Origin: Spirochaetota bacterium
GTDB lineage: Bacteria > Spirochaetota > GWE2-31-10
Assembly (NCBI GenBank): GCA_045133795.1
Contig: JBGUUT010000108.1
Location: 2,499-66,498 of the forward strand
Length of the DNA stretch: 64,000 nt
Direction: 5' to 3'
Shown here: piece by piece, positions 653-46,176 of the stretch
Layout of the letters: the number at the start of each line of letters is the position of its first letter
Numbering within the stretch: the first letter of the stretch is position 1
Program-made: the position numbers and the translations under genes
The notes under the pieces: model-generated
What the model saw: only the letters and a program-made list of their open reading frames with translations
Databases searched by the model: none
What the model was told of the DNA's origin: nothing

Positions 653-663
653 GGAGATTTATA

Positions 664-978
664 ATGTCACCATTTGATTTACTAAAAAATTTTAACATCA
701 ATTCTTTAAAAGAAAAAGCTGAAGAAATGAAAGAAAAAATTGAAAACTGTGAAGTTACCGGTGAAGCCGGAGGCGGTTTTGTCAAAGTTAAAATTAACGG
801 TAAATTTAAAATACTTGATATCAGTTATGAAAATAACAAATACATCACCGAAGATTTAGAAACATTCAAAAATCTTATAATCTGTGCTCAAAATGATGCT
901 TGTGATAAAATGAATGAACAAATCAAAAATGAGCTCGGACCTTCTTTCGGAGATTTATCTTCGTTTCTGGGAAAATAA
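664..978 (+). CDS. ybaB: Nucleoid-associated protein YbaB/EbfC
   Basis: 104 aa. Contains GGGFVKVKINGKF..ISYE core and the conserved C-terminal AQNDA..K helix typical of YbaB. Sits between dnaX-like and recR. Confidence 0.85.
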   Translation: MSPFDLLKNFNINSLKEKAEEMKEKIENCEVTGEAGGGFVKVKINGKFKILDISYENNKYITEDLETFKNLIICAQNDACDKMNEQIKNELGPSFGDLSSFLGK

Positions 979-980
979 AA

Positions 981-1574
981 ATGTATCAAATTGAAGATTT
1001 AATCGCAATATTAAGCAGACTCCCCGGTTTAGGTAAAAAAACAGCCTCTAAGTTGGCTTATTTCTTCGTTAAAAACAAAGAATATTCTAATGATTTCATT
1101 AAGATTCTTTCATTTATACAGAAAAATACAAGTTTCTGTCCTGATTGCGGCTGTATTATTTTAAATGTAGAAAAATGTTCTATTTGTTCTTCTGATATTA
1201 GAAACAAAAACCTTTTATGTATTGTAGAAGAACAAAAAGATATGATGGCAATAGAAGATACCGGTGTTTTTTCAGGTCTTTATCATATTCTTTCAGGAAC
1301 AATAAATCCGTTAGAAAATCGCACACCCGAAAAATTAAGAATAAAAGAATTAATAAATAGATTACAAGAAAATAATTTTGAAGAAATTCTTATAGCTACT
1401 AATCCTACCATTGAAGGCGATGCTACATTTTTATATCTTCAAAATCTTATCAAAACAACTTTTCCAAATATAAAAATATCTAAAATAGCCACCGGTCTTC
1501 CAATGGGAGGAGTTTTAGAATACGCAGATAAACATACTCTATCACGAGCAATAGAGCAAAAACAATATTTTTAA
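981..1574 (+). CDS. recR: Recombination protein RecR
   Basis: 197 aa. N-terminal HhH (LSRLPGLGKKTASKLAYF), a C4 zinc finger (CPDCGC..CSIC) and a Toprim-like region. Confidence 0.9.
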   Translation: MYQIEDLIAILSRLPGLGKKTASKLAYFFVKNKEYSNDFIKILSFIQKNTSFCPDCGCIILNVEKCSICSSDIRNKNLLCIVEEQKDMMAIEDTGVFSGLYHILSGTINPLENRTPEKLRIKELINRLQENNFEEILIATNPTIEGDATFLYLQNLIKTTFPNIKISKIATGLPMGGVLEYADKHTLSRAIEQKQYF

Positions 1575-2968: not shown

Positions 2969-3635
2969 CCCAAACGGTTCTTATACTACAATTTTCTGAT
3001 TTTTGTTGTTTCAACTTATTTCTCAAGTGGCTTATATGCATATCCACTGAACGGTCAAAACTTTCATAATCTCTATCAGAAATAACTTTTAACAACTCTT
3101 CTCTGGTAAATGTTTTTTCAGGATTTGATGCTAATAAATACAAGATTTCAAACTCTGTTTTTGTTAATTCCATTTCATTACTATCAACAATCAACATTCT
3201 CTTATCTGCATTTATTACAAGATTACCGAAAACCAATTCTTTCTTTTGAGTGTAATCAAACGGTGTACTTGCTGAACGTCTTAAAACACTTCTGATTCTT
3301 GCACTTAATTCTCTTATAGAAAAAGGTTTTGTTACATAATCATCAGCACCTAATTCAAGACCGATAATCTTATCAATTTCATCACCTTTTGCAGTTAACA
3401 TAATAATAGGAACGTCTACTTTCTTCTGCAATTCTTTTAACAAATCAAGACCGTTTTTTCCCGGAAGCATAATATCCAATAATATAATATCCGGTTTTTC
3501 TGTATCTACAATTTGGTCTACATCTTTTCCATCATTTATTATTACAACGTTAAACTCGTATTGAGTAAAATATTTTTGTACTATATCTGTCAGTTTCTTA
3601 TCATCATCTACAATTAATATCTTTTTCTTCACCAT
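2937..3635 (-). CDS. OmpR-family response regulator (receiver plus winged-helix)
   Basis: ILIVDDD..LLDIMLPGKNGLDL receiver and C-terminal TVWGAGYRF wing motif. Overlaps the downstream HK gene by 32 nt, so operonic. Confidence 0.9.
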   Translation of the reverse strand: MVKKKILIVDDDKKLTDIVQKYFTQYEFNVVIINDGKDVDQIVDTEKPDIILLDIMLPGKNGLDLLKELQKKVDVPIIMLTAKGDEIDKIIGLELGADDYVTKPFSIRELSARIRSVLRRSASTPFDYTQKKELVFGNLVINADKRMLIVDSNEMELTKTEFEILYLLASNPEKTFTREELLKVISDRDYESFDRSVDMHISHLRNKLKQQKSENCSIRTVWGAGYRFEVKK

Positions 3636-3740
3636 AAAGAAAACTCCTCATTTTGTTTATTAAAAAATATACAAATAATAAAAAAAATATACTACTCGAA
3701 AATAAAAAATAAATGCAGTATATATTTTAATATTTACAAT

Positions 3741-4769
3741 TTAGAAAAAAACGGATATTCCCAACAACGAAACATCCAACAGTGGCAAATCATAATCAAA
3801 TATCTTTCCGTACCACTGATTATTTTTATTCGAATACTTTTGAGTCGTATGAAAATTTATAAACATTGTATAATAAATCTTTTTATAAAGTTTTATATCT
3901 AATCTCTGATAAAACGAAAACTGCGGTAAGAAATAAGACTCTATAGCTTCAAATGTATCGCCTTTTTCTTTTATTGCTGAAATATTATAAATACTTGCAC
4001 CAAATGAATAATGAGAAATTTTATAAAAAAATGAAAATCCTAATGACATTCCATAAAATTGTGCAAAAGGTGCTAATCCGTCAGCATTTTTTTCAAGATA
4101 AAAATCTTTATATGACAAATTATAGAACAATCCGATTTCCATATATCTTACGGGATAAAACGCTACATTAAAATTTATGGGAAATATAGAAAAATTATTC
4201 AAATCCTCATAATACAAATGCAACGATACACCGCTTAGACTCAAACTTGCATAAGGATAATCATGTTCTATTTTTCTATCTTGCGAGTAATTAATTTTAT
4301 TCTCAATTACTGTATTTTGAACAGTGGTTACTTCGTCATTTACTACTAAAGATATATCTTTCTCTATTTGTTTATATATATCTTCCTTTATCAAATTTAA
4401 ATCTTCCAATGATACACACATTTCTGTATTGAAAGTTGATGATGACAAAAGTTCACCTTTTTTATTATAAATACCAAGTTTCAATATTTTTTCTTCATAT
4501 TTAAAAATATAAAACGCATCATTTTTATTTAGAGCAACACGCTTTTCAAACGGTAATTTCGCAAAACTGTAATCGCAAAAAAAACGACAATCTGATATTT
4601 TTTTCTCACTCTCAATACAATTGAAAATATACATCATTACCAAATTATCTTCTTCTTTTGCTAATTCTGCCTTTTCATAAAAAAGCGAAACTTTTTTTTC
4701 TTCCCCGTAAAAAACAGAAGCAATAAATAAAATAAAAATAATTAATAACCCTTTATAATTTAATGCCAT
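3741..4769 (-). CDS. Hypothetical secreted protein, possible outer-membrane beta-barrel (C-terminal ..SVFF)
   Basis: N-terminal signal peptide, aromatic-rich alternating C-terminal half ending in Phe-Phe. No family recognised. Confidence 0.3.
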   Translation of the reverse strand: MALNYKGLLIIFILFIASVFYGEEKKVSLFYEKAELAKEEDNLVMMYIFNCIESEKKISDCRFFCDYSFAKLPFEKRVALNKNDAFYIFKYEEKILKLGIYNKKGELLSSSTFNTEMCVSLEDLNLIKEDIYKQIEKDISLVVNDEVTTVQNTVIENKINYSQDRKIEHDYPYASLSLSGVSLHLYYEDLNNFSIFPINFNVAFYPVRYMEIGLFYNLSYKDFYLEKNADGLAPFAQFYGMSLGFSFFYKISHYSFGASIYNISAIKEKGDTFEAIESYFLPQFSFYQRLDIKLYKKIYYTMFINFHTTQKYSNKNNQWYGKIFDYDLPLLDVSLLGISVFF

Positions 4770-5763
4770 AGCCTATCAAAACCCCTAATGTTAATTGATT
4801 ATCCCATTGATAATCTGTTAAATTTAGAGACATTATTGGAAATACCCCGGATATACGCAAAACATGTTTTTTAGCCAAATGTATTTTCATTCCAACTTCA
4901 AATGGTATAGATAAAAAAACTGCTCCTATATTATTATATAATATTTCAATTTTCGCACCGATATTCGGTTCAAACCACCCTTTCAGATAAAAATGAAAAC
5001 CTGCAAATCCACCGCCGTAAAAAGAGTTCCACTTCCAATCTGAAAAATCAATCCATTTATCTTGTTTTCCAATCCCAAAACAACCGCCTGCATCAAGATA
5101 TATAAAATCACTGGCATAAAAACTATATCCAGTATAAACAGAAGCCAACGTTAACGTCTGAGAATTTACTTTAAAAAAACCATGACTTACAAAAATCTCA
5201 TGTCTTATTTTTTCTTTATCTAATAAATTTTCGATTCGTTCTTTTTCTACATTTTCTTCTGCTTCTTTCACTTCAGCTTTTTCCGGAACTTTTTTTATTA
5301 TTTGTTCTTTTTCAAATTCCAATAGTGAAATATCACTTATTATTTGTTCCGCTACTAACGCTATTGACTCATTAATCTTTAAATTAAATTCGATTGGATA
5401 ATTTTTGTTATATAACAATTGATTTTTACCAATATCATAAAGATATGTATGTAAAATTATATTTCCGTATAGATTATAAGTTTTAAATAAAAAAACATAT
5501 CTTAAATCTTCTTCTATCCCTGATAAAAACGCATTCTTTTGCAAATCTTCAAATGTAGAACCTTTACAAGTCAAATTTCTTAAATCAAAAGAACCTTCAT
5601 CATTAGCACTGAATATTTCAAAAATCAAATTGCTTTTTATCAATAATGTTTCAGTTGTGTTTTGATATAAAAAAGGATTAACAATACCTATAGCTATAGG
5701 TTGTGAAAATACTACTGATAACGAAAATAAATAAATAATCAAAAAAAACTTCAGGCTTTTCAT
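4753..5763 (-). CDS. Hypothetical secreted protein
   Basis: Signal peptide MKSLKFFLIIYLFSLSVVFSQ. Glu/Lys-rich linker then Gly/aromatic-rich C-terminal half. Overlaps next gene by 17 nt. Confidence 0.3.
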   Translation of the reverse strand: MKSLKFFLIIYLFSLSVVFSQPIAIGIVNPFLYQNTTETLLIKSNLIFEIFSANDEGSFDLRNLTCKGSTFEDLQKNAFLSGIEEDLRYVFLFKTYNLYGNIILHTYLYDIGKNQLLYNKNYPIEFNLKINESIALVAEQIISDISLLEFEKEQIIKKVPEKAEVKEAEENVEKERIENLLDKEKIRHEIFVSHGFFKVNSQTLTLASVYTGYSFYASDFIYLDAGGCFGIGKQDKWIDFSDWKWNSFYGGGFAGFHFYLKGWFEPNIGAKIEILYNNIGAVFLSIPFEVGMKIHLAKKHVLRISGVFPIMSLNLTDYQWDNQLTLGVLIGYGIKL

Positions 5764-5770
5764 AACTACA

Positions 5771-7105
5771 TTATCCTTGAAAATAATTTCTTAAAATTTC
5801 AAGTCCACGTAAAGTATTTTTTTCATCTTGATAATAAATATTATTAAAACCAAAACGTTCTGCTTCTTTTACTCGCTTTTCTATTTGATTTACTTTTTTT
5901 ATTCCGCCAGTTAACGATAATTCTCCGATAAATACATCTTTATTTATTATCATCTTCTGCTTTTTAGACGAAATTAATGCCGCAGCTATCGCTAAATCAA
6001 TACCAATATCTGATGTTTTTATTCCGCCGGATATATTAGTATATACATCATAATTATTAAAATTTTCCCCCAAGTGTTTATCAATTATCGCCAAAATTCT
6101 ATTAATTCTGGATATTTCTATTCCCTCTGAAAATCTTTTAGGCATAGGATAAGCTGAAGGTACAACTAAAGCCTCTACTTCTACAATTAAAGGTCGCTTT
6201 CCCTCTATTATTACACATTTACACTTTCCTACTGATGAATCTTCTATATTTTCACTTTCTATAAAATAAGATGACGGATTATCAATTACCTCAAGACCTT
6301 TTTCCTTCATCTCAAATACAAGTATCTCGTCTACATTACCAAACCTATTTTTTCTTGAGCGTAATATTCTGAATTGATTCTTATAATCACTTTCAAAATA
6401 AGTAACAACATCAACCATATGTTCCATTAGTTTAGGACCCGCTATTTCTCCTGATTTTGTTACATGACAAACAATTACTACTACAGCATTAGATGTTTTT
6501 GCATAATCAATTAACATTTGAGTACATTTTTTTATTTGAGAAATAGTTCCTTGACCGGAATCAACTTCCGATGAAAAACAAGTTTGAATAGAATCTACAA
6601 AGACAAACATAGGTTTTTCTTTTACACAGATTTCATTTATCTTTTCTAGTTGAGATATATTAGATACAAACAAAGATGAATCTGAAGCTCCGACACGATC
6701 AAATCGTTTTTTTATTTGCGATACAGATTCTTCTCCCGAAAAATAATAAATCTTCTTTGATCTTTTTATAAATTTAGCTAATAAAAAAAGAAAAGTCGAC
6801 TTACCTACTCCTGGCTCGCCTGATAATAAAATAACAGAACCGGGTACAATTCCCGTTCCGAAGAAAATATTCATATTTTCATTTTCTAAAACAAAAATAT
6901 CTTCTTCTAAACGTTGTATTTCTTGAATCTTTACTGGGTATTGTATTTCTTTATTAGTAACATTTTTTTCTGTCGCATTTTTATTGTCATTTATTACTTC
7001 TTCAATAAAAGAGTTCCAGCTGTTACATTCAGGACATTTTCCCATCCACGCACTTGATATATACCCGCATTCATTACATGCAAATCTTTTTTTTAACTTT
7101 GTCAT
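5771..7105 (-). CDS. radA: DNA repair protein RadA/Sms
   Basis: N-terminal C4 zinc ribbon (CNECGY..CPECNSW), Walker A GEPGVGKST, KNRFG motif and a Lon-protease-like C-terminal domain. Confidence 0.9.
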   Translation of the reverse strand: MTKLKKRFACNECGYISSAWMGKCPECNSWNSFIEEVINDNKNATEKNVTNKEIQYPVKIQEIQRLEEDIFVLENENMNIFFGTGIVPGSVILLSGEPGVGKSTFLFLLAKFIKRSKKIYYFSGEESVSQIKKRFDRVGASDSSLFVSNISQLEKINEICVKEKPMFVFVDSIQTCFSSEVDSGQGTISQIKKCTQMLIDYAKTSNAVVVIVCHVTKSGEIAGPKLMEHMVDVVTYFESDYKNQFRILRSRKNRFGNVDEILVFEMKEKGLEVIDNPSSYFIESENIEDSSVGKCKCVIIEGKRPLIVEVEALVVPSAYPMPKRFSEGIEISRINRILAIIDKHLGENFNNYDVYTNISGGIKTSDIGIDLAIAAALISSKKQKMIINKDVFIGELSLTGGIKKVNQIEKRVKEAERFGFNNIYYQDEKNTLRGLEILRNYFQG

Positions 7106-7758
7106 TTTTTTATTTTAAAAATCTTCTCATCTACCGTATCTAAAAAAAGCTTTTTCATATTGATTTCACTTTCTTCATTAGTCAATCCCAGCATTCGGTC
7201 TATTCTTATATAATTACCATCACAATTTTTTCCTTTATCTGAAATAATAGGAATTTTTACTGTAGAGTGAAGCATTTGAATAAAATCATCCGGAAAGTTT
7301 TCTAAAATCAAAAGTTCTCCGCCTGAAGCTTGAAACTCAATTGCTTTTTCCTTTATAAAATCAACGGAAATACTGTTGTAATTTGAATATGCTATAAATT
7401 TTAAACCAATTTGACTTCCTTTTTTTATTAAATCAAAATCAAAATAATTTAAATCTATAGATAAATAATCTGCATTCGTAGCATTCGCAAAATTAAGCAT
7501 TTTCTCTATGCTTATTTCATTTTTTGACAATAAAGATAATATAGGAACATCTACCGCTAACGGAATATTACCTTTATAAGAAGAAGTAATACTTTTTATA
7601 TCATCTTCTTTGATATTCAATACCTTATTTACACCACATAAATTCGCTGTTTCTTTTAAATCACATCGTAAAAATGAAATTTCTCGTTTCATTAAAAAAC
7701 TACTGAACAATGAATTAAAAAATGACATCGCAATTATTTTTTTATTATTTTCAAACAA
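7102..7758 (-). CDS. Hypothetical protein (alpha/beta, possibly TIM-barrel-like)
   Basis: 218 aa, no recognised motif. Stop overlaps radA start by 4 nt (translational coupling). Confidence 0.3.
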   Translation of the reverse strand: MFENNKKIIAMSFFNSLFSSFLMKREISFLRCDLKETANLCGVNKVLNIKEDDIKSITSSYKGNIPLAVDVPILSLLSKNEISIEKMLNFANATNADYLSIDLNYFDFDLIKKGSQIGLKFIAYSNYNSISVDFIKEKAIEFQASGGELLILENFPDDFIQMLHSTVKIPIISDKGKNCDGNYIRIDRMLGLTNEESEINMKKLFLDTVDEKIFKIKK

Positions 7759-7814
7759 AATTACATCTCCTAATAAAAAAAGTAGGATAATAAAATCCTA
7801 CTTTCAAATATATT

Positions 7815-8453
7815 TTAACCTTGTATTACTTCTTCTTGGTATAAAACTTTTACTCGTTTAATAGTTCCTTCACCTTCAGAAACAGTGTCTATATTTTCCA
7901 CACTTTTTAAAGTCATATGAATTATTCTTCTTTCAAAAGGATTCATAGGATCTAATAATACTGATTTTTTTTCTTTCTTAACCTGTTTAGCTGCATCTTG
8001 AGCTATCTTCTTTAAATTACGTTCTCTTCTTTCTCTGTAACCGCAAGTATCAATAATTATCTTAGTCCATACAGAATAATCTTTATTCATTATAACATTT
8101 ACTATTGTTTGAATCGCTTCTAAAGTTTTACCTTGTTTTCCTATTAAAATAGCTGAATCATCTTTAGCATCAATATCAATTAAAACTTTTTCATCATCTT
8201 CTTCCATAAGATAAATCTTAGCTTCAATATCCATACGTTCCAATAATTCTTTTACTAACATCAAACTTCGATTAGCAAATGATAAATCATCGTCATAAGA
8301 AATTTTAACTACAACTTCTTTTTTTCCTAAGCCTAAAAAACCGCCCTTATTTTCAATTTTAATCTCAACTTGATCTCTTTTTAATTTTAAAACATCAAGA
8401 GCTGCGGAAATCACTTCATCTTCTGATTTTCCAGTAAAATCTCTTTCTATCAT
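7815..8453 (-). CDS. khpB: Jag/KhpB RNA-binding protein (Jag_N, KH, R3H)
   Basis: R3H motif RRIIHMTL..., KH-like core, position immediately downstream of yidC as in most bacteria. Confidence 0.8.
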   Translation of the reverse strand: MIERDFTGKSEDEVISAALDVLKLKRDQVEIKIENKGGFLGLGKKEVVVKISYDDDLSFANRSLMLVKELLERMDIEAKIYLMEEDDEKVLIDIDAKDDSAILIGKQGKTLEAIQTIVNVIMNKDYSVWTKIIIDTCGYRERRERNLKKIAQDAAKQVKKEKKSVLLDPMNPFERRIIHMTLKSVENIDTVSEGEGTIKRVKVLYQEEVIQG

Positions 8454-8491
8454 ATAAGAAACTCCTTTAATTTAGAGAATTTTTTTCTTAT

Positions 8492-10222
8492 TTATTTTTT
8501 TCTTTTACCTTTAGGTGCATCAACAACAGTAGCATTTGCTAATGTTTTATTCATAAATAATTGCTGAACTATTCCTAACAAGTTCATTACCGTCCAATAT
8601 AAAACCAAACCGGAAGATACATTGTAAAAGAAAAAGAAAAACATTAACGGCATTAACCAAATCATCATTTTTGCTTGAGGATTATTATCCATTCCCGGAG
8701 TAAGCAAACTCTGGAATACTTGTGATATAACCATGATAATCGGTAATATATTTAAAGAACTTATATTTAACAACGGTATTGTGAAACTAAAAGCTATTAA
8801 AGCATCCGGCATAGCCAAATCCTTTATCCATAAAAAACTTGCACCTTTCAATTCAAACATTCTATCCAATAATTGATACATAGCAAATAAAAACGGCATT
8901 TGTAGTAACATTGGTAAACAACCGGACATAGGACTTACGCCGGCTTTTCTGTATAATTCCATTGTTTTTTGACTTAACATTTCCGGTTTATCTTTATATT
9001 TAGTCTGTAATTCTTTTAATTTAGGTTGTAACGTTTGCATCTTTTGAGAGTTTTTCATACTGTTCATCATTAAAGGTGCTAACAAAACTTTTAGAATTAC
9101 AGTTAAAATAATTATCGCTACTCCGTAATTTTTTACAGCAGCATACAATACTTTCAAAAACCAGCCTAATAAATTACCAAGTCCGAAAACAATAGAAGGA
9201 TCCATCTTTGATAATTCTGTTTTAGCCAAATAAACATCTTCATTTCTGAAATCATCATACTTTTTTAAAATCTTACTGGATTTTGGTCCACAATAAACAT
9301 TAAAACTTGTTTCTATTACTGATTTATTTGAAATTAATGACAAACCACAATAATATAATTTTTCATCTGATTTACTGTAGTCAAAGAAATAATCATATTC
9401 ATTTCCGTCAGGAATTATAACAGATGTAAAATAATGACTGTCTGAAGCAATCCAAGAATCTTTCAATGATTTTCTTATGCTTGCAAAACCATTATTCCCC
9501 TTAAATAATTTATGTTTAGAATTAACATTTACTATTTTACTGTTAGACAAATATCTGAATTGATCATATCTGTCATCTTTTTTCTCTGAAACACCTAAAC
9601 TAGGTCCCCATGCCAATGAAAAAACATTTGAAGAAGAATCAAATCTCATACTCTTATTTTTATCATTAGACAATTTTATATCAACATGAAATAGATTTTC
9701 ATTTTCATAGAATGTATATATTTTCTCTAGTTTATAATTAACTAATTCTTCTGTATCATCTGAAGAAAAATCACAAGAAAAACAATATTTATTCTCATTC
9801 TTAGTGAAAGTATAAATAGAATCACCTAACAATGAATTTAAATCTACTCCGTTTTCCCAAGAGCCTAATTTTAATTTCATTGCATTGTTTATATTACTTC
9901 CGTTTACCAAATCAAATGCTTTCTGATTCGGCGTTTTTACTATAAGCTCTGCTATTTCTGCTTTAGCTGAATTAAATACAACTTTTAAAACATCATTTTC
10001 ATAAATAATATCTTCTGCATTTGGAACAATTTCATTATTCAATGAAAACTTTTTTTCTTCTTTTACTTTTTTTATTTCTTCATTCTGATTGATTATTGAT
10101 TCTTCATTGTTTGTTTGCACACTATTATTAGTAGTAGGATTAAAAAATTGGTACAAAGTTATACCAAAACAAACCATAGTTAAAACTACCATAATAAAAA
10201 ACGTCTTATTTGCACTATCCAT
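8492..10222 (-). CDS. yidC: Membrane protein insertase YidC
   Basis: 576 aa. N-terminal TM, large periplasmic domain, C-terminal 5-TM core and basic tail PKGKRKK. Conserved rpmH-rnpA-yidD-yidC-jag context. Confidence 0.9.
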   Translation of the reverse strand: MDSANKTFFIMVVLTMVCFGITLYQFFNPTTNNSVQTNNEESIINQNEEIKKVKEEKKFSLNNEIVPNAEDIIYENDVLKVVFNSAKAEIAELIVKTPNQKAFDLVNGSNINNAMKLKLGSWENGVDLNSLLGDSIYTFTKNENKYCFSCDFSSDDTEELVNYKLEKIYTFYENENLFHVDIKLSNDKNKSMRFDSSSNVFSLAWGPSLGVSEKKDDRYDQFRYLSNSKIVNVNSKHKLFKGNNGFASIRKSLKDSWIASDSHYFTSVIIPDGNEYDYFFDYSKSDEKLYYCGLSLISNKSVIETSFNVYCGPKSSKILKKYDDFRNEDVYLAKTELSKMDPSIVFGLGNLLGWFLKVLYAAVKNYGVAIIILTVILKVLLAPLMMNSMKNSQKMQTLQPKLKELQTKYKDKPEMLSQKTMELYRKAGVSPMSGCLPMLLQMPFLFAMYQLLDRMFELKGASFLWIKDLAMPDALIAFSFTIPLLNISSLNILPIIMVISQVFQSLLTPGMDNNPQAKMMIWLMPLMFFFFFYNVSSGLVLYWTVMNLLGIVQQLFMNKTLANATVVDAPKGKRKK

Positions 10223-10237
10223 ATATACATCCTCTCT

Positions 10238-10426
10238 TTACGGTAACGGGTCAAATCCACCTTTAGAAAAGGGGTTACAGCGTAAGATACGCCATATAGT
10301 TAAAATTGAAGCTTTTAAAAAACCATATTTTAAAAAAGCTTGTTTTGCATATTCTGAACAAGACGGGTAAAATCGACATGAAGAAGGGAAAAATGGGGAT
10401 ATGTAATGTTGATAAAGGAATATCAT
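10238..10426 (-). CDS. yidD: Membrane protein insertion efficiency factor YidD
   Basis: 62 aa with conserved [10 protein letters not shown] motif. Confidence 0.85.
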
Positions 10427-10446
10427 AAAAAGAATTACTTTTTTTA

Positions 10447-10791
10447 TTATATCCCCCTCTGTAAGCTTTTTATAAAATCCTCAAAATCTAAAGCTTTTTT
10501 ATCATTAGGAGAAGAACTCTTTTTTATAATACATACAAAATCATAAGAAAGAGACTCTTTGTCTTTTATTTTTCTAAAAAACTCTCTCACAAGTCTCTTT
10601 TCATGATTTCTTACAACAGCACATCCTATATTCTTTTTTGCAACAATCCCTATTCGCAAAAAACCTAAAGAATTTTGCTTATAAACAAAATTATAACTAG
10701 AAGTTCTTCTAAAAAGAGAAAACTTACTTTGAAAAATGGAATCGAAATCTTTCTTCTTTTTTAATTTTTCACAGCGTCTAAAATTTTCCAA
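10447..10791 (-). CDS. rnpA: RNase P protein component
   Basis: 114 aa, basic. RNR-like motif region [27 protein letters not shown]. Downstream of rpmH. Confidence 0.85.
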
Positions 10792-10800
10792 AATATAAAA

Positions 10801-10938
10801 TTAAACTCTTGTTAATTGTTTTCTACCTTTTGCTCTTCTTCTCTTTAATACTAAACGACCTTTTTTTGTAGCCATTCTAGCTCTAAATCCGTGAGTTCTT
10901 ACTCTTTTAATTTTAGATGGTTGATAAGTCATTTTCAT
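10801..10938 (-). CDS. rpmH: 50S ribosomal protein L34 (not in supplied ORF track, below length cut-off)
   Basis: Manual translation of the minus strand gives [45 protein letters not shown], the canonical L34 sequence. Confidence 0.9.
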
Positions 10939-11006
10939 ATATAAAAATCTCCCGCAATATTATTTCAAAATTTCAGCGGGAACATAGCATTTTCTATGAA
11001 AAAATG

Positions 11007-12417: not shown

Positions 12418-13530
12418 TTAAACACTCATTGGCATCATAATATAAATATAATCAGGATTGTCTTCTTCCAATATGACAATTGTACTGGAAGCATTATTAA
12501 ACTTAAATATAAGATTATCATTTTTTATAACGCTTATGACATCTGTTATATAAGAGAAGTTAAATGCGATTTTGATATCATCACTGTCATACTCAATATC
12601 GATTGTTTCTTCTCCGTCTCCGTAAGTCATATTTTCACTATAGATTTTCATCGTATTGCCAGACAGTGATATTATAACTTTGTGAGTATCTTTTTCTCCC
12701 ATTACACTTACACGATCTATAGCATCTTTAAAATCTTTTCTGTTAACTTTGAAGCTTTTTGCTGAATTAGCAGGAATTACAGATTGATAACTAGGAAAAC
12801 CTGAATCTAAAAGATTTGAAATAAAGAAACAGTTATCAATATTAATAAATACTTCTTTTTCATTAAGACCTACTTTTAGTTCTGTTTTATCATCTCCGGA
12901 ACACAATTTTAAAGCTTCTTGTAATATTTTAGGAGGTACGACTACTTTAGAAAAAGTTTCTTTTATTTCCACGTCTTTTTCTATTTTAGCAAGTCTTTTT
13001 CCATCAGTTGTAACCATTCTTAGTTTATTATCTTCATATTCAAACAAAGTACCTATTGCAAATTTTCTATTGTCATTTTGTGATACCGCAAACTTTGTTT
13101 TGTTTATCATATCAGCAAAAATGTCTTTAGGTACGTTAAAATAATTGATATTTGAAGTATCTAAGATTTCAGGAAATTTATCTGGCGAAATACCTTTGAG
13201 ATTGTATTTTAAAGTGTTTTTTCCTTTTGCTTTTATTTGAATATTTAAATCACTATCGCTTTGTATTTCTATTTCATCTGAAGGTAATTTTCTTGCTATA
13301 GAATAAAGCTTGTTTGAGTTTACACAGATTTCTCCTTCTTCTTCTACATCAGCTCCTATTTCTCCATAGAAACTTATTAATGTATCGCAAGCTTTTATTG
13401 TTAATTGATTGTTTTGTGCTTTTATATGAATGTTTGATAATATAGTTATACTGTTTTTTGAAGATATAACACTTTCACAAATACCAAGAATTTTGTTTAG
13501 ACTTTCAATTGAACAGAAAAATTTCATCAT
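12418..13530 (-). CDS. dnaN: DNA polymerase III beta subunit (sliding clamp)
   Basis: 370 aa, three-domain clamp length, abuts recF start. Confidence 0.9.
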   Translation of the reverse strand: MMKFFCSIESLNKILGICESVISSKNSITILSNIHIKAQNNQLTIKACDTLISFYGEIGADVEEEGEICVNSNKLYSIARKLPSDEIEIQSDSDLNIQIKAKGKNTLKYNLKGISPDKFPEILDTSNINYFNVPKDIFADMINKTKFAVSQNDNRKFAIGTLFEYEDNKLRMVTTDGKRLAKIEKDVEIKETFSKVVVPPKILQEALKLCSGDDKTELKVGLNEKEVFINIDNCFFISNLLDSGFPSYQSVIPANSAKSFKVNRKDFKDAIDRVSVMGEKDTHKVIISLSGNTMKIYSENMTYGDGEETIDIEYDSDDIKIAFNFSYITDVISVIKNDNLIFKFNNASSTIVILEEDNPDYIYIMMPMSV

Positions 13531-13710
13531 AACTCCTTTAGTTATTAACTTTCTCTATTATTTCTAAATTTATTAAATTTTAGTAGTAGAAGTAATAGGG
13601 GGTGTTTATATGTTTATAACACAGTTAAATTGTTTTATATAGCGATTTTACAGTTATGAAAACTTGTTCATAAGGTTTTCTGGTTATTAACGTTATAAAC
13701 ATAAAAATAC

Positions 13711-13749
13711 TTTTTAACATTTTATTCTATCTTATTAAACAACTTATCA
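13711..13749. repeat. 39-bp direct repeat, copy 1 (second copy at 14205-14242, 37/39 identical)
   Basis: tttttaacattttattctatcttattaaacaacttatca versus tttttaacattttattttatcttattaacaacttatca. Each copy lies just downstream (minus-strand sense) of a copy of the dnaA 3' end. Confidence 0.8.
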
Positions 13750-13770
13750 CTAATATTTTTGTCTCAATAT

Positions 13771-13803
13771 CTTCTTTTATTCTGTTTTCAATATTAATAA
13801 CTT
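13771..13803. repeat. Perfect 33-bp duplicate of the dnaA 3' coding end (identical to 15888-15920)
   Basis: cttcttttattctgttttcaatattaataactt is present at both sites. The copy at 13771 is non-coding and lies 2.08 kb away from the real gene end. Confidence 0.9.
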
Positions 13804-14040
13804 TATTTATCTTCCTTATAAAGCATTAATAATGATAATTGTTTCTTCTTTTATAATACGGTTTATGTGTAATTGATTGTTGTAGTTATTTTCAAATATC
13901 ATTATATATCTTTTGTATATTTTTTGCTTATAAGGTTAATAAAAGACTATGTAAATAAAGAAAAACGGCATTTCTTATATAAAAGAGATGTCGTTTTATC
14001 AAAATAATATATAGAGGTGAAAAATAAGTGATAGTGCGGA

Positions 14041-14140
14041 TATAAAAAAGCGTCTGAGGGGGCGGGCCATTCCCCATAAAGACGGTAGCATAAAGCCCTT
14101 AATCTCTCGGCTGCCCTTTCCGATGTTCCAGACGCTAATT
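14041..14140 (-). ncRNA. Candidate small structured RNA (GC-rich element with 8-bp closing stem and 3' T-run on minus strand)
   Basis: Positions 14048-14135 are about 57% GC in an AT-rich intergenic region. agcgtctg (14048-55) pairs with cagacgct (14128-35); internal G/C runs (ggggg, cgggcc, cccc, agccc/ggct, gccc) can pair. On the minus strand the element is followed by tttttt; a GATAAT-like -10 lies about 10 nt upstream (14150s). Confidence 0.35.
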
Positions 14141-14204
14141 AAATATTATCATATAATAATGGAAGAAAAGATAATTTTTTTTTCTGTTATTTAAGGAAAG
14201 ATAG

Positions 14205-14242
14205 TTTTTAACATTTTATTTTATCTTATTAACAACTTATCA
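14205..14242. repeat. 39-bp direct repeat, copy 2, preceded by partial dnaA-end copy ccttcttttattct (14256-14269)
   Basis: See 13711-13749. A 14-bp match to the dnaA 3' end at 14256-14269. Confidence 0.8.
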
Positions 14243-14356
14243 TTGTTGTTAAATTCCTTCTTTTATTCTACCAATGCTATATGCTTGTGTATAGAAGGCA
14301 ATAATAATTGGCGTTCTCGAATTAATTAGTAGAAGATAATTCTATAAAACCAGTTA

Positions 14357-14974
14357 TTAATTAACAACAAGTGCAGAGAAGGTGTCTACGATTTTTTTTA
14401 CAAAATTAGAAACATTACTGTCTGTGAAAGTCCCCAAGTCCTGTGGTTCAGGAACATTATCAATTCGCTTCACAGTTGCCTGTGGATGATTTTTATTATA
14501 AGCGTCGATAATCGAATTAAAACCACGAAGTAGAAAAACATAAGCATAATACGCATCGTTAAGATGTTTTACGAGTTTTTCAAAGTTTGGGTTTGTAACT
14601 TCATTTGCTTTAGTCGTAACCGTATCATAAGAGTTTTTCGCATTTTGAAATTTATTTTCAATAGCTACTGAAAGTCCCAAATCCTTAAAATCGTTTGAGG
14701 TTTTATACTTATTGTAAAATCCAACAAGTAAGCTTGAAGTCCGCTTAAACTCTTCGAAGAAAGACTCATAGGAATCTTTTATACTTTTCTTGTCAGTTTC
14801 GATGTCTTTCTCTGATTCGGTTAATGGGGCTAAAAGATAATTACTTAGCAAGTTAACAAAAGAAAAATCCAACGCAAAAAAGCTATTCTTTAAGTCCGCT
14901 ATGTCCTTTTGTAGGTCGGTTTTTATCTCGTCTTCAAAGAATTTGTTAAGTGCAAAAATTTTTTCAAAATCCAT
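14357..14974 (-). CDS. Hypothetical protein (island ORF-B, 205 aa, predicted helical)
   Basis: Long ORF with noticeably higher GC than flanking genes and no recognisable motif. Located between dnaA and dnaN. Confidence 0.4.
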   Translation of the reverse strand: MDFEKIFALNKFFEDEIKTDLQKDIADLKNSFFALDFSFVNLLSNYLLAPLTESEKDIETDKKSIKDSYESFFEEFKRTSSLLVGFYNKYKTSNDFKDLGLSVAIENKFQNAKNSYDTVTTKANEVTNPNFEKLVKHLNDAYYAYVFLLRGFNSIIDAYNKNHPQATVKRIDNVPEPQDLGTFTDSNVSNFVKKIVDTFSALVVN

Positions 14975-15053
14975 AATGATTTCCTCTTTTTCTAATTTAA
15001 ATATTATAATCTTCCAATATTTACCCCTGTTATTTTAATGGTACCAGAATGCG

Positions 15054-15065
15054 TTGTTGCAACAA
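15054..15065. promoter_or_regulatory. Perfect 12-bp palindrome TTGTTGCAACAA in the ORF-A/ORF-B intergenic region (candidate operator)
   Basis: gcgTTGTTGCAACAAtttg is exactly self-complementary. It lies about 90 nt upstream of the ORF-B start. Confidence 0.35.
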
Positions 15066-15207
15066 TTTGTCAAAGGCGTTACCTTCTAGGTTATTCTGTC
15101 TGAAGTAACATAAAATTATATAACTTTGGAAAAACTCAGGCAATATATGGATTGTTTCTGCTAATTGTACGTTTCTAAATAGCCATGTAGTACTTTTATT
15201 TTTTTGT

Positions 15208-15816
15208 TTATGACAAAGTAAGTGAATCTACTCCGGGAATAATATATTGTAAGCAATCTTTGCCTGAATCGGGGGCTTTATATGCCTTAAAACTACCACC
15301 ATTTTTTTGGGCAATTTTTTTATAAGCTTTGTTAGCAGGATTTTCTTCTAAAGAGTCCCATTTTATACAAGTGTATTTTTGTTTTAATTCAGGAATAAGG
15401 TTAGCTAAATCACATGCAAGTGTAGTGTAAGGGTGGTCAATGTCAAAAGAAAACATTTTTATACCAATTATTTCAGTTCCTGAACAAATAATGGCTACGA
15501 ATCCTTTTAAGTTTTTTGTTTCTGTGTCTATATTGAAAAATGACTTTATTGTTCCACCTATAGACTTTATGGATAAAGAAATTAAATCGTACAAAGTAAC
15601 ATGCTCATCTTCTGGCTCAATGCTTGAAATAAGGTATTTGTATTTTGTATCCATCAATTCTTTAGCTGGTGTTTTTAAGATATTTTCTACTGCCGGATTC
15701 TTTTTAAGATAATCATCTAGTACTTTGATTTCTGCTCTTTCTAGCACTTCTGTAATTCGATGACTTTTTCCAAGATAAGCAAAGAATTGTTCTACTATTT
15801 TTTCTTCTTTGGTCAC
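15208..15816 (-). CDS. Hypothetical protein (island ORF-A, 202 aa)
   Basis: ORF with good RBS (GGAGG upstream of ATG) and no recognised family. Immediately downstream of dnaA. Confidence 0.4.
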   Translation of the reverse strand: MTKEEKIVEQFFAYLGKSHRITEVLERAEIKVLDDYLKKNPAVENILKTPAKELMDTKYKYLISSIEPEDEHVTLYDLISLSIKSIGGTIKSFFNIDTETKNLKGFVAIICSGTEIIGIKMFSFDIDHPYTTLACDLANLIPELKQKYTCIKWDSLEENPANKAYKKIAQKNGGSFKAYKAPDSGKDCLQYIIPGVDSLTLS

Positions 15817-15879
15817 TTTTAATCTCCTCCCAAAAAAAAAGAAAAGACATTTTTTACAGAAAGCACTAAAAACAATTGA

Positions 15880-17343
15880 CTAACCACCTTCTTTTATTCT
15901 GTTTTCAATATTAATAACTTCAGATTTTAATTTTTTATCATCATTCATACATTTTTTTATTTTGTTTGCAGCATGAATGATGGTTGCATGTTCTTTATTG
16001 AAATATTTTCCAATTTGATTTGTTGATAATCGAGTGTATTGTGTGCTCAAATACATAGCTATTTGTCTTGCGATAGCAATTGATTGTGTGCGTTTTTTAC
16101 CTCGTATGTCTAAAACGGTTAAATCATAGTAATTCGCAACTATTTCCATTATCTTATCAATAGATATATTTCCTACTGATTTAACAGCAGTTATTTTATC
16201 TTTTAAACATTTATTGATAACATCAATTGTTATTTCTTTTATATTCATAATACTTGTATAAGCCAATAAATCCCTGAAAGCACCTTTTATTTCTCTTATG
16301 TTACCGGAAATATTTGTACAAATATATTCTATATTTTGAAGATTTAAGTTCATGTTATTTTGTTGAGCTAAATCTTTTAATATAGCCATCTTTAATTCAT
16401 AATCAGGTTGTTTTAATTCTACGGTTGTCCCCATACTGAAACGACTTTTAATTCTTTTTTCAACATCTTTAACTTTAGATATAGGTTGATCGCAAGTTAT
16501 AACGATTTGTGTTTTTCTGTCATAAAGTTCGTTAAACGTATTAAAAAGCTCGTTTAAACAAGCACCTTTTCCGGATAAAACTTGAAAATCATCAAGAAGT
16601 AAAATATCTAGTTTGCGGTATTTTTCTCTGAATATTTTAGGTTTATCAGAGTCTTTATGTCTGATTGAATCTAAAAACTCATTTAAAAAATTTTCAGATG
16701 TAACATATGTAATTTTCTTTTGATTGAATAATCTTTCCGCACGTTGTTTTATTGCTTTTATAAGATGAGTTTTTCCGGTTCCGCTTTCGCCCCATAGAAA
16801 AAGAGGATTTCTTTTAGGATTACCGGGTTCTTCGGCTATTGTCTGAGCTAGTCTGAAAGCGTATTCGTTTGTATCATCTGTTAAAAACGAATCAAACGTA
16901 CATTCTTCATCATTATCTGAAAAAACTCTGTCTGTTTGTTCTTCTTCAACAGGAAGAATTTCTTCTGCTTTTATATCAATAATCGGTTCTATTTTCTGAG
17001 GTTCTTCGACTAATTGTGTTTTAGGCGGAATTACAATTTTTTCTTCAATGATTTCTTTTTGTTTTGGCTGCTCTTTTTTTTCTATTTGAACTGCATCACA
17101 TCCTGAATCAACGATAATATTGATGTTTATTTTCTGGTTCCAACATTTTAAGAGTATATTTTCAAATGTTTTTTTGTAGTTTGAAAGAATAAAATCTTTT
17201 AAGAAATCGTTAGGAGTGACCAAGGTTAAGCTTTTGTCACCTTCTGAAAAAGAATAATATTGCAATTGTGTTAAAAACATACTTGGAACATCTTGTTCCG
17301 ATATAAAATTTTGAATTCCTGTCCAGAAAATTGAATAATCCAT
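15880..17343 (-). CDS. dnaA: Chromosomal replication initiator DnaA
   Basis: 487 aa. AAA+ Walker A GESGTGKTHL, sensor motifs, C-terminal DNA-binding domain with the DnaA signature region (..IGKYFNKEHATIIHA..). Confidence 0.95.
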   Translation of the reverse strand: MDYSIFWTGIQNFISEQDVPSMFLTQLQYYSFSEGDKSLTLVTPNDFLKDFILSNYKKTFENILLKCWNQKININIIVDSGCDAVQIEKKEQPKQKEIIEEKIVIPPKTQLVEEPQKIEPIIDIKAEEILPVEEEQTDRVFSDNDEECTFDSFLTDDTNEYAFRLAQTIAEEPGNPKRNPLFLWGESGTGKTHLIKAIKQRAERLFNQKKITYVTSENFLNEFLDSIRHKDSDKPKIFREKYRKLDILLLDDFQVLSGKGACLNELFNTFNELYDRKTQIVITCDQPISKVKDVEKRIKSRFSMGTTVELKQPDYELKMAILKDLAQQNNMNLNLQNIEYICTNISGNIREIKGAFRDLLAYTSIMNIKEITIDVINKCLKDKITAVKSVGNISIDKIMEIVANYYDLTVLDIRGKKRTQSIAIARQIAMYLSTQYTRLSTNQIGKYFNKEHATIIHAANKIKKCMNDDKKLKSEVINIENRIKEGG

Positions 17344-17654
17344 GTCACATATCCTATGTATAAAAAAAGTAATAAAAAAATAAAATTGAATTCAATTTTT
17401 AGTATACTGGTGCCGAAAATCGAATCTTTTTTTGTATCGGTACTTAAAACAGTTTATTAACAAGTTTTTTGAAAAAAAATATTTCTACGATTTATTAACA
17501 AGAGTACGTTTGAATTACTTGTTAATACTTGTAACTTGTTTAATAAACATTAATTAGAAGAAAAAAGGTAATGTTTTTTTATAATGTTATTAACATAGAT
17601 ATAGTTAAAAAATGAGTTAAATTAACAAGTTATTAACAACTTTAGGAGTTTAAT
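17344..17654. promoter_or_regulatory. Candidate oriC: AT-rich region with 7 copies of TTATTAACA(AG) in both orientations
   Basis: Copies at about 17454, 17491, 17517 (rev), 17534 (rev, one insertion), 17586, 17620 (AATTAACAAG) and 17631. AT-rich tract 17344-17410 is a possible unwinding element. Lies immediately upstream of dnaA. Confidence 0.5.
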
Positions 17655-46167: not shown

Positions 46168-46176
46168 GAGATAACG

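Follow-up and report, generated by a model that had tools for sequence, protein, structure and literature searches.

CIMEs (cis-mobilizable elements) and their tandem accretion at the 3′ end of a housekeeping gene have been defined in a review for ICESt1-related elements of Streptococcus: inserts are stacked at one site, the target stays intact, and the remnants carry no integration or transfer genes (PMC5704250). At the essential single-copy gene ssrA of Dehalococcoides, several tandem islands lie downstream of the gene and are bounded by repeats of its 3′ end; most have a serine-recombinase module beside attL and a uniform 20-bp repeat, and some have no integration module and may be fixed (PMC3146451). 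In Mycobacterium tuberculosis, IS6110 has inserted into the dnaA–dnaN intergenic region, parting the two genes and inactivating neither (PMC3701491). No account of dnaA as an integration target was found in the literature searched. The dnaA–dnaN pair is among the most conserved in bacteria and maps to the replication origin or right beside it.

The window analysed here, a whole stretch of 64 kb, comes from one uncultured gut spirochete species and has a gap of 2,349 bp between dnaA and dnaN. This gap is organized as three modules (ORF-B; ORF-A; a hairpin plus 240 bp), with a copy of the dnaA terminus after each. The modules are 0.4–0.9 kb in size and hold a single gene or the hairpin alone. 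From dnaA to dnaN the features are:

15880–17343, minus strand: dnaA, from its open reading frame and translation and the Pfam Bac_DnaA annotation in conspecific loci
15888–15920, minus strand: E1, the functional dnaA terminus core, AAGTTATTAATATTGAAAACAGAATAAAAGAAG
15127–15887, minus strand: module 3, comprising the new dnaA tail, a 63-nt leader and ORF-B
15079–15126, minus strand: E_AB, a decayed dnaA-terminus copy, located by a pattern count and alignment of the copies
14287–15078, minus strand: module 2, ORF-A with its own promoter-like site
14186–14286, minus strand: Emid and S1′, a copy of the dnaA end followed by a copy of native spacer
13804–14185, minus strand: module 1 (X), made up of a promoter-like stretch, the hairpin and AT-rich non-coding DNA of about 240 bp
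14044–14134, minus strand: GC-rich irregular hairpin, from folds
13771–13803, minus strand: E2, a displaced dnaA-terminus copy, 33/33 identical to E1
13531–13770, minus strand: native dnaA–dnaN spacer adjoining dnaN, from alignment with relatives
12418–13530, minus strand: dnaN, called product of 369 aa starting at 13527

A first-pass annotation had placed two ORFs of 202 and 205 aa and about 830 bp of non-coding DNA between dnaA and dnaN; both ORFs are confirmed (ORF-B, 15208–15816; ORF-A, 14357–14974), and the stretch from ORF-A to dnaN amounts to about 826 bp with no credible ORF. The annotation took the region for a lineage-specific insertion and suggested aligning the dnaA–dnaN junctions of relatives. 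This alignment supports its view. In six related lineages (L001–L004, L038/L039 and L040; DnaA 68–80% identical) the gap is an ORF-free spacer of 235–258 bp that is colinear with positions 13531–13803 of the window, and ORF-A and ORF-B are absent from seven other lineages. All relatives keep the native spacer, in which two TTATAAACA motifs form an inverted pair, at 13611 and 13693.

The seventh lineage, a sister with 91% DnaA identity, has a dnaA–dnaN gap of 545 bp that contains the hairpin module only. Its native spacer is 93% identical to that of the window, and its real dnaA end (…AGAATAAAAGAAGGAATTTAA; GGAATTTAA) is identical to the mid copy of the window. The hairpin and about 40 bp upstream of it are kept in the sister, whereas the 240-bp 3′ part of module 1 is unalignable, scoring no better than shuffled sequence. 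The S1′ spacer copy is absent from the sister, and the sister's counterpart of E2 has no significant similarity to dnaA. Within the species, the full layout is present in 10/10 conspecific loci with a recovered dnaA–dnaN interval (L014 and L017–L025, a set that includes one contig twice), and none of the loci recovered has an empty site. The insertion is therefore fixed in the species and not a recent strain-level acquisition. Inserts are confined to two of the eight lineages examined, namely this species and the sister, and the site is therefore no general hotspot. A scan of metagenome contigs for native-type dnaA ends gave five chance matches, none with dnaA.

The repeats that bound the modules derive from the end of dnaA and the spacer that follows it. 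The annotation described 13771–13803 as a perfect copy of the last 33 bp of dnaA; the match to 15888–15920 is exact, although the repeat stops 8 nt short of the end of the stop codon. This 33-mer is the sole exact repeat of at least 20 nt in the 64-kb window, and is thus far beyond chance. At the real dnaA end the core is followed by the tail GTGGTTAG (15880–15887), which is unlike the native tail, so that DnaA ends here in …RIKEGG-stop and in the relatives in …RIKEGI/V-stop, as tabulated from the C-terminal variants. E2 is followed by ATATTGAG and then by the native spacer, and is kept in all ten interval-spanning conspecific loci.

The mid copy, Emid, consists of the exact 14-bp match already annotated at 14256–14269, AGAATAAAAGAAGG, and a native-type tail, GAATTTAA, and reads …KEGI-stop. 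The adjoining S1′ is a copy of the first 63–65 bp or so of the native dnaA–dnaN spacer. It includes the 39-bp repeat that had been reported at 13711–13749 and 14205–14242, which is indeed present, with one mismatch and one indel. The whole mid copy is 81% identical to the dnaN-proximal copy over 81 bp (E about 1e-14), and by alignment the 39-bp repeat is a duplicated piece of the conserved native spacer, not a DnaA-box array. A fourth, decayed copy of the dnaA end lies between ORF-B and ORF-A (E_AB, 15126–15079); its sequence is AAGTTATATAATTTTATGTTACTTCAGACAGAATAACCTAGAAGG followed by TAA and contains ACAGAATAAcctAGAAGG directly before that TAA. The pattern ACAGAATAA(0–4 nt)AGAAGG occurs only in E_AB and at the real dnaA end, with an expectation of 0.005 per 64 kb, and a decayed version is also found in L076. 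The four copies are direct repeats on the same strand and delimit the three modules. The left boundary AAGTTAT is common to three of the four, and to the decayed copy of the sister. The annotation had proposed two successive events: its stepwise scheme is upheld by the sister, which is the predicted hairpin-only intermediate, but the number two is not, since there are three modules and four dnaA-end copies.

The same annotation called the insert foreign-looking, and ORF-B and the spacer between the ORFs more GC-rich than the neighbouring housekeeping genes; GC content gives no evidence of foreignness: ORF-A (32.7% GC), ORF-B (31.2%) and the spacer between them (28.8%) are typical of the window (mean 31.5%, sd 4.2; median long ORF 31.1%). 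The low-GC genes are dnaA (28.8%), dnaN (27.6%) and recF (25.6%), and only the 91-nt hairpin stands out. We agree with the annotation that the window has no integrase or transposase, as no ORF of at least 200 aa contains such a Pfam domain. There is also no recombinase among the called genes within about 5–6 kb in the conspecific loci, and no match of ORF-A or ORF-B to a recombinase in Pfam, NCBIfam or PHROG. We found no attP-bearing element, the att core having zero matches in viral contigs, and no integrase-bearing element sharing the att site in viral contigs or in 40 relevant loci. The hallmarks of insertion sequences and transposons (transposase, terminal inverted repeats and a short target-site duplication) are missing from the region, and there is no intI integrase or attI beside the array in the 64 kb. 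A general inverted-repeat search detected no attC-like palindromes at the module ends, which are instead direct dnaA-terminus copies. Of the site-specific integration at the dnaA 3′ end that had been suggested, the stepwise build with gene-end copies therefore stands; the integrase would be an extrapolation, with no recombinase or attP found.

ORF-B (15208–15816, 202 aa) has a GTG start and is preceded by a 63-nt leader with the ribosome-binding site GGGAGGAG. No promoter or terminator is predicted between dnaA and ORF-B, suggesting that the two are co-transcribed. With 14 homologues and 60 invariant columns, ORF-B is a divergent orphan that is modelled by AlphaFold as a GNAT-like fold at medium confidence (pLDDT 63.8). 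Direct reading of its sequence reveals no Q/RxxGxG/A acetyl-CoA motif. ORF-A (14357–14974, 205 aa) is preceded, some 35 nt before its ATG, by a promoter-like TATAAT site and is predicted to be a fast-evolving helical bundle (AlphaFold pLDDT 84, pTM 0.81). It has 240 homologues at 73% identity or more, and only 31 cluster representatives among 1.84 billion proteins. Its nucleotide homology to other contexts covers only the ORF and about 35–48 bp upstream. ORF-A occurs without ORF-B in L009, L013, L016 and L079–L084, and ORF-B without ORF-A in L006 and L015; the two are therefore not an obligate pair. Neither has a match in PADLOC, Pfam or NCBIfam, and no relatives of either were found in viral contigs. 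A 1.76-kb block that includes the mid copy is also present in a non-dnaA context (L076), best read as a secondary copy of the dnaA-locus block.

The locus resembles CIME accretion in its stacked inserts, intact target and remnants without integration or transfer genes (PMC5704250). It differs in that its modules are 0.4–0.9 kb, against several kb to tens of kb, in that no related integrase-bearing element is known, and in being species-fixed rather than strain-variable. It shares with the Dehalococcoides ssrA islands the series of tandem inserts downstream of an essential single-copy gene with 3′-end copies between them (PMC3146451), but has no recombinase, and its copies range from 33/33 identity to heavily decayed. 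As in the IS6110 case, dnaA is parted from dnaN with neither inactivated (PMC3701491); unlike IS6110, with its transposase, inverted repeats and short target duplications, the insert has none of these and the gene end itself is duplicated. In being small single-gene units, mostly orphans in one orientation, stacked beside a fixed site to which the newest is inferred to lie closest, the modules recall integron cassette arrays. GNAT-type and orphan proteins are typical cargo of integron cassettes. Unlike integrons, the array has no intI in the 64 kb, ORF-A has its own promoter, and the unit-end repeats, as read from the sequence, are dnaA-terminus copies and not attC sites with RYYYAAC/GTTRRRY cores.

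We lean towards interpreting the 2.1 kb between the 33-bp repeats as a species-fixed mini-island that was built by three successive insertions at the dnaA terminus and consists of recombinase-less remnants. The following account, from the recombinase and its circular substrates to the succession of insertions and the way the genes are transcribed, is inferred. Small circular elements would have integrated site-specifically into the 3′ end of the gene, with the last 35–45 bp or so of dnaA as the target, followed by tandem accretion. Each incoming piece would have brought a variant dnaA terminus of its own, in the form of an att-like segment that starts at AAGTTAT and that in the oldest piece would also have included the first 65 bp or so of the downstream spacer. 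Recombination inside this segment would keep dnaA intact while changing its tail from …KEGI-stop to …KEGG-stop, and would push earlier inserts and relic dnaA ends towards dnaN. The hairpin module, common to the sister species, would have arrived first, ORF-A second and ORF-B third. Because a recombinase is not encoded here, it would have been supplied in trans or lost, and the modules may now be CIME-like remnants. ORF-B would be read through from dnaA, ORF-A would use its own promoter, the GC-rich hairpin and U-tract would end these transcripts, and dnaN would retain its native conserved upstream region.

Serial insertion is consistent with the native spacer being intact beside dnaN. The altered tail that follows the core at the real dnaA end fits an element-derived attL arm, and the independent histories of ORF-A and ORF-B elsewhere fit separate acquisition. 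As in islands at gene 3′ ends, there are direct repeats of the target end, a regenerated dnaA end and an empty site in related genomes, but no tyrosine or serine recombinase inside; as in CIMEs, at the sequence level, the repeats (putative attL and attR) are retained and mobility genes are absent. Other observations argue against serial insertion. The supposedly oldest copy, E2, matches the present dnaA end at 33/33 positions, among them synonymous sites at which the sister differs, and the sister's own counterpart is not significantly similar to dnaA; this calls for gene conversion or a more recent re-formation of E2. The sister lacks S1′ and its module-1 3′ part cannot be aligned with that of the window. 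The modules are far below known integrative elements in size, their composition is not foreign, the inserts are limited to this species and the sister, and neither a recombinase nor an attP-bearing element was found.

An alternative that we consider unlikely is Campbell-type RecA recombination, in which circular or transformed DNA carrying the dnaA end and spacer of a related strain is integrated and the homologous stretch is duplicated each time. The lack of a recombinase is in keeping with this, as are the flanks of the oldest module, in which about 100 bp resemble the native site, both dnaA end and S1′, with 81% identity, a length beyond that of a typical att core and an appearance expected of captured host DNA; the L076 block, with its mid copy away from dnaA, likewise suggests that host-derived segments travel. 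For the later events, however, Emid offers no more than 14 bp of identity and E_AB an interrupted match, little for a RecA-dependent crossover, and the same left boundary AAGTTAT recurs in three copies, whereas homologous crossovers should scatter. By reasoning, not computation, a single crossover with an L076-like circle also predicts a different gene order. A little less likely again is a history with no mobile element, in which slippage or unequal crossing-over duplicated the dnaA end and spacer, illegitimate insertion occurred between the copies, and gene conversion acted on E2. The perfect match of E2 to the species' own dnaA allele would then reflect ongoing or recent conversion or duplication, and local instability is indicated by a polymorphic 30-bp tandem duplication inside the region and by the complete turnover of the module-1 3′ part between window and sister. 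Yet such a history would need duplications to arise independently several times at one and the same left boundary, and a complete functional gene to be inserted exactly between copies each time; the new dnaA tail is not copied from the old one, and none of the six other related lineages has any such duplication.

We regard it as very improbable that ORF-B and ORF-A form one cassette, a GNAT toxin–antitoxin or anti-phage defence pair inserted as a unit. The annotation had suggested a two-gene module as possible cargo, but each gene is found alone in the separate contexts listed above, a dnaA-end relic sits between them, and the absence of PADLOC, Pfam and NCBIfam matches gives a defence pair no support. 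Their arrangement is also unlike a toxin–antitoxin locus: in GNAT systems of the TacAT or AtaRT type a small DNA-binding antitoxin of about 90 aa is encoded directly upstream and always co-occurs with the toxin, whereas here the upstream gene is dnaA, and ORF-A lies downstream, encodes 205 aa and has its own promoter. No acetyl-CoA motif is seen on reading ORF-B, and L076 carries the dnaA-derived mid copy and so is best read as a secondary copy of the block. Hardly credible at all is the view that a bipartite origin with DnaA-box arrays accounts for the repeats and that the ORFs are ordinary conserved residents. The native spacer is strongly kept with its inverted TTATAAACA pair, and the mid copy has one TTATTAACA, but each repeated unit matches the coding end of dnaA and the spacer in a base-by-base alignment, the region upstream of dnaA at about 17450–17630 is where the GC-skew switch and the clearest box-like cluster (four copies of TTATTAACA) are located, and seven other lineages lack the ORFs. 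This was the outcome that the annotation had named as fatal to its own reading, and it is not what we find, the repeats being gene end plus spacer.

If serial insertion at the dnaA terminus is correct, accessory genes have been stacked three times inside dnaA–dnaN with no damage to either gene or to the conserved region upstream of dnaN. Even this locus can then act as an integration site, and the main interest lies in the unusual target. Should a trans-acting recombinase be found, the modules would rank with the smallest mobile units bounded by att sites described so far, with their expression tied to the promoter of the replication initiator itself; should none exist, the locus would be a tidy case of local genome remodelling of limited wider importance. 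A more far-reaching proposal, which we think improbable, is that the dnaA terminus is the attachment site of an undescribed single-gene cassette system of gut Spirochaetales, with circular units that carry dnaA-end mimics and a recombinase elsewhere in the genome. Such a system would be integron-like but have no integrase gene linked to it. The newest cargo would lie beside the replication origin and be expressed by read-through from the dnaA promoter, which is autoregulated, and the conserved 77–91-nt hairpin would serve the system as a small RNA of its own or as a terminator. Among the proteins, ORF-A offers a lead as a very narrow, fast-evolving orphan family that, in ruminant-gut spirochetes, is mobile between chromosomal islets and a phage-like contig, and ORF-B as a divergent GNAT-like orphan.

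The hairpin of module 1 is a further lead, as a candidate structured RNA without an Rfam family. It is 91 nt long with 53.8% GC, is closed by CGTCTGG/CAGACG and is followed by T6, making it a candidate intrinsic terminator or small RNA. Its consensus structure has 26 pairs, 4 of which differ in a compensatory manner between the window and the sister. To the eye, GGAAAGGGCAGCC looks like the SRP helix-8 sequence, but searches of Rfam 15 at gathering thresholds and at E up to 10 match the hairpin to no known RNA, SRP RNA and 6S included; the best permissive matches are on the wrong strand, with scores well below threshold. Moreover, the GGAA of an SRP-like reading is not kept in the sister, and the fold sets it in a stem flank and not at the apex. 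A multicopy REP- or MITE-like hairpin is likewise rejected: a covariance model of the hairpin (R1) found only the window and sister copies in the 219 kb of sequence searched, and BLAST no other copy in the window. In viral contigs a hairpin 21-mer had zero matches, and the 35 matches to a 15-mer are taken as chance.

Several further resemblances at the locus were considered and set aside. The motif TATTGCCT, shared 14–19 nt upstream of two dnaA-end copies, is too weak, with 5 occurrences in the window against 2.3 expected. The dnaA-end motif is not a general cassette boundary, as a one-mismatch copy lies only at the edge of the ORF-A homology in L009 and there is none in L013, L015 or L016. 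A resemblance of the core to a sequence some 7.9 kb downstream in L002–L004 is a coincidence of the RadA peptide QIEKRIKEA. Module 1 does not derive from the dnaA 3′ region by tandem duplication and decay, as the two have no similarity beyond the 33-mer. The 30-bp tandem duplication (14174–14203) is specific to the window, spans the boundary between module 1 and S1′, and appears as an indel relative to the conspecific loci. Module 2 also contains a perfect 12-bp palindrome, TTGTTGCAACAA, at 15054–15065.

The window comes from an uncultured AT-rich member of the Spirochaetales (window GC 31.5%). The closest species-representative genomes, with DnaA identity of 68–79%, are MAGs from the ruminant gut that carry the label Spirochaetales or Spirochaetota. 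Two orphan ORFs, ORF-B (202 aa) and ORF-A (205 aa), lie between dnaA and dnaN together with a hairpin element. The genes after dnaN are recF, a DciA-family gene, rpmH, rnpA, yidC and jag, all on the minus strand like the four genes listed here.

Features of the dnaA–dnaN interval
15880–17343, minus strand: dnaA
15208–15816, minus strand: ORF-B
14357–14974, minus strand: ORF-A
14134–14044, minus strand: hairpin, an irregular fold closed by CGTCTGG/CAGACG, then six U at 14044–14049
12418–13530, minus strand: dnaN

The first-pass annotation read this arrangement as an insertion, and comparison with related lineages bears this out: in L001–L004 and in two further lineages found via DnaA homologues (L038/L039 and L040) the dnaA–dnaN distance is 235–258 bp and holds no ORF. 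Its argument from a higher GC content of the ORF-B region and the ORF-A/ORF-B spacer fails, as ORF-A (32.7%) and ORF-B (31.2%) are close to the long-ORF median of 31.1%; dnaA, dnaN and recF fall below that median.

The sole exact repeat of at least 20 nt in the 64-kb window is a 33-mer, AAGTTATTAATATTGAAAACAGAATAAAAGAAG, at 15920–15888 and 13803–13771 (minus-strand reading). This pair, a 14-bp copy (14269–14256) and a 39-bp repeat are all present as first described, except that the 33-mer is not the last 33 bp of dnaA but stops 8 nt short of the stop-codon end. Alignment of all window dnaA-end copies with the native dnaA ends of eight lineages gives four co-oriented dnaA-end units.

Copies of the dnaA terminus
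E1: the real dnaA end, with a new tail, GTGGTTAG
E_AB: a decayed dnaA-end copy, with TAA after it
Emid (the mid copy): an exact 14 bp, then the native tail and a 63-bp spacer copy
E2: an exact 33 bp, with the native spacer after it

E_AB (15126–15079, between ORF-B and ORF-A) reads AAGTTATATAATTTTATGTTACTTCAGACAGAATAACCTAGAAGG before its TAA; the pattern ACAGAATAA(0–4 nt)AGAAGG, expected 0.005 times per 64 kb, has no match besides this one and the real dnaA end. The mid copy is 81% identical to the dnaN-proximal copy over 81 bp. Three of the four window copies share the start AAGTTAT, as does the decayed counterpart in a sister lineage. The spacer copy that follows Emid, a duplicate of the first part of the native spacer, is called S1'. 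The four co-oriented units therefore give the layout dnaA, ORF-B (module 3), relic, ORF-A (module 2), relic with S1', hairpin with 240 bp (module 1), relic with native spacer, dnaN. The evidence as a whole shows serial insertion at one site, with the gene end regenerated each time and the native dnaN upstream region preserved.

Window positions 13531–13803 are colinear with the relatives' dnaA end and spacer (alignment A1). The 39-bp repeat is a conserved portion of that native spacer (ATAAGTTGTTnAATAAGAnnnAATAAAATGTTAAAAAG); it is neither a mobile-element feature nor a DnaA-box array. The spacer itself (13531–13770) is unusually conserved among lineages whose DnaA proteins are only 68–91% identical, with AAATTTAGAAATAATAGAGAAAGT, for instance, nearly invariant. 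Two TTATAAACA motifs, at 13611 and 13693, form an inverted pair within it. The spacer may serve as promoter/operator for dnaN or as a further site of DnaA binding.

An intermediate state is seen in the sister lineage (L032–L037; DnaA 91% identical, C-terminus …KEGI*), in which the dnaA–dnaN spacer is 545 bp and ORF-free. Here the dnaA end, …AGAATAAAAGAAGGAATTTAA, is followed by ~40 bp, a homologue of the hairpin, 143 bp, ATATTGAG and the native spacer. The window's mid copy, AGAATAAAAGAAGGAATTTAA, is identical to the sister's real dnaA end and thus represents the ancestral dnaA end, parted from its gene on arrival of the ORFs. The P0136 lineage is closer still, at 96% DnaA identity.

All ten conspecific loci that span the interval (L014 and L017–L025, with L014 and L021 being one contig fetched twice and L017–L025 having identical DnaN) share the layout and both 33-mers, and differ from the window by small indels only; the insert is fixed within the species. 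Metagenomes containing the species include ERZ27297675, ERZ28633500 and ERZ28436057. An eleventh locus, L026, is uninformative because its contig ends ~285 bp upstream of dnaN. That end (L026 1–285) falls 11 nt upstream of the E2 core, an assembly break at the repeat that might stem from strains differing at this junction in its sample. A 30-bp tandem duplication in the window (14174–14203) is missing from most other conspecific contigs (L014, L018–L025); L017 has the window form here and a 39-bp in-frame deletion in ORF-A that gives a 192-aa product.

Among known processes the best fit, to which we give slightly better than even odds, is that circular elements integrated site-specifically, accreted in tandem and lost their mobility genes, as described for CIMEs (PMC5704250) and for the Dehalococcoides ssrA islands (PMC3146451). 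Each incoming circle would carry an att segment mimicking the 3' end of the target gene, and each internal relic would be the att arm of the incoming element joined to the previous dnaA tail; in the proposed order the hairpin module came first, then ORF-A and last ORF-B. Such joining would explain why the relics differ in their similarity to dnaA, why the sister's dnaA tail follows Emid and why DnaA now terminates in GG and not in GI. Against integration stand the lack of a recombinase at the locus, the failure to find a parent element and the very small size of the modules. Moreover, E2 matches the species' own dnaA allele at 33 of 33 positions, yet the hairpin module seems to predate the split from the sister, which requires gene conversion or later re-formation of the copy. 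Two alternatives stay live at lower probability: RecA-mediated Campbell insertion of DNA with a captured dnaA-end sequence, which we consider unlikely, and local duplication followed by illegitimate insertion, which we rate as slightly less probable again.

The locus behaves like known cases of tandem accretion at a gene 3' end. We do not assign it to any integrase-defined family, because the search for a recombinase found none: in agreement with the first-pass annotation, which saw no remaining integrase or transposase, ORFs of at least 200 aa in the window contain no recombinase or transposase domain. It differs from an integron array in having no intI and in that its unit ends are dnaA-end copies, not attC-type palindromes. 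An insertion sequence and a recognised toxin–antitoxin or defence system were also rejected as its identity. Searchable literature yielded no instance of dnaA as a 3'-end integration target; the known dnaA–dnaN case is IS6110 transposition in M. tuberculosis (PMC3701491). The architecture is clear-cut and well supported, and its location is unusual.

Within module 1, conservation in the sister is restricted to the hairpin (87%); the 240 bp at the 3' side of the module align no better than shuffled sequence does. For scale, window and sister share 93% identity in the native spacer and differ at 26–37% of four-fold sites. In the consensus fold 26 pairs are kept, 4 of them through compensatory changes, in two lineages, which are too few for statistics, and an Rfam search matched no family. 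Because a promoter-like GATAAT-ATTTAATTAG lies upstream, the hairpin could, judging from its sequence, be a self-standing RNA of ~95 nt. A more conservative reading is an intrinsic terminator closing the dnaA/ORF-B/ORF-A transcripts ahead of the dnaN promoter region. Immediately before the hairpin, the sequence ATGATAATATTTAATTAG (14147–14172, minus strand) resembles the ORF-A promoter region (GATTATAATATTTAAATTAG; 14993–15022, minus strand); in L076 the two are reported as a direct repeat (2357–2381 and 3182–3206, 80%).

At ~17000–17600, just upstream of dnaA, the cumulative GC skew reverses, and the 311-bp gap there contains four same-strand TTATTAACA motifs (17454–17630, plus strand) that share 7 of 9 positions with the DnaA-box consensus, TTATCCACA. 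The origin therefore most likely lies upstream of dnaA and not in the dnaA–dnaN region, the gap probably being oriC. Elsewhere in the window, and unrelated to the insert, orphan long ORFs (343, 345, 408, 614, 218 and 305 aa) have no Pfam match at E 1e-3 to 1e-5 or better.

Regions holding the orphan long ORFs
3744–5790, minus strand
46168–47391, plus strand
58979–62720, plus strand

Homologues of ORF-B number only 14 and are well conserved. Pfam, NCBIfam and PADLOC give no match to it, and PHROG gives one weak match, to a function-unknown family. The AlphaFold model, of medium quality (pLDDT 63.8), suggests a GNAT-like fold with putative catalysis only; no Q/RxxGxG/A acetyl-CoA motif was seen in the sequence. 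The ORF-A family is very narrow, with 31 cluster representatives in a set of 1.84 billion proteins, and has many close variants in ruminant metagenomes. A good model shows ORF-A as an all-helical bundle (pLDDT 84, pTM 0.81); its structural matches are of mixed kinds and uninformative. A perfect 12-bp palindrome, TTGTTGCAACAA (15054–15065, minus strand), lies right after E_AB and ~80 nt upstream of the ORF-A start, is imperfectly kept in L076 and may be an operator.

The proposal that the two ORFs form a two-gene module was not borne out, as they are not an obligate pair. ORF-A homologues occur without ORF-B beside a ParE toxin–antitoxin pair (L009, 88% nucleotide identity), in a phage-like series of small ORFs (L016, 91%), in L013, and in L079–L084, a four-gene orphan-ORF block with differing downstream neighbours. 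ORF-B homologues occur without ORF-A in a Treponema contig (L006) and beside an IS1595 transposase (L015). Nucleotide homology to these contexts covers the ORF and at most ~50 bp upstream.

Both ORFs are also found together outside dnaA, in a 1.76-kb block that runs from ORF-B through ORF-A, the mid copy and S1' into the hairpin, of which it includes the first 65 nt, with its left junction present in at least three independent assemblies (L076–L078). Because it contains dnaA-derived sequence and a truncated hairpin, the block is best read as a secondary copy derived from a dnaA locus. Its non-coding parts are 92–100% identical to the window and its ORF-A protein only 79%; either ORF-A alleles are swapped between flanks that stay conserved, or L076 was chimerically assembled at its right-hand junction. 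In ORF-A, the first and second codon positions differ between the window and L076 at about half the rate of the third. Variants of ORF-A (73–99% identity) number in the hundreds, mostly on contigs shorter than 3 kb, several of which break at one point beside the gene. These observations suggest that the gene is hypervariable or has been relocated repeatedly.

Outside the species, ORF-A has its closest homologue on the 30.6-kb contig L016, positions 1–10941 of which carry tightly packed co-oriented small ORFs, with NAD synthase, nucleoside deoxyribosyltransferase, isochorismatase and Thg1 domains, and look phage-like from their sequence. In L009 the 17 nt that open the ORF-A homologue (ATGGATTTTGAAAAAAT) are repeated 252 bp upstream (5745–5765 and 5997–6017, 20/21 identity), and a one-mismatch copy of the dnaA-end motif (AAAATAAAAGAAGG) stands exactly where homology to the window starts (5953). 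These repeats may represent another gene-end duplication, or a coincidence.
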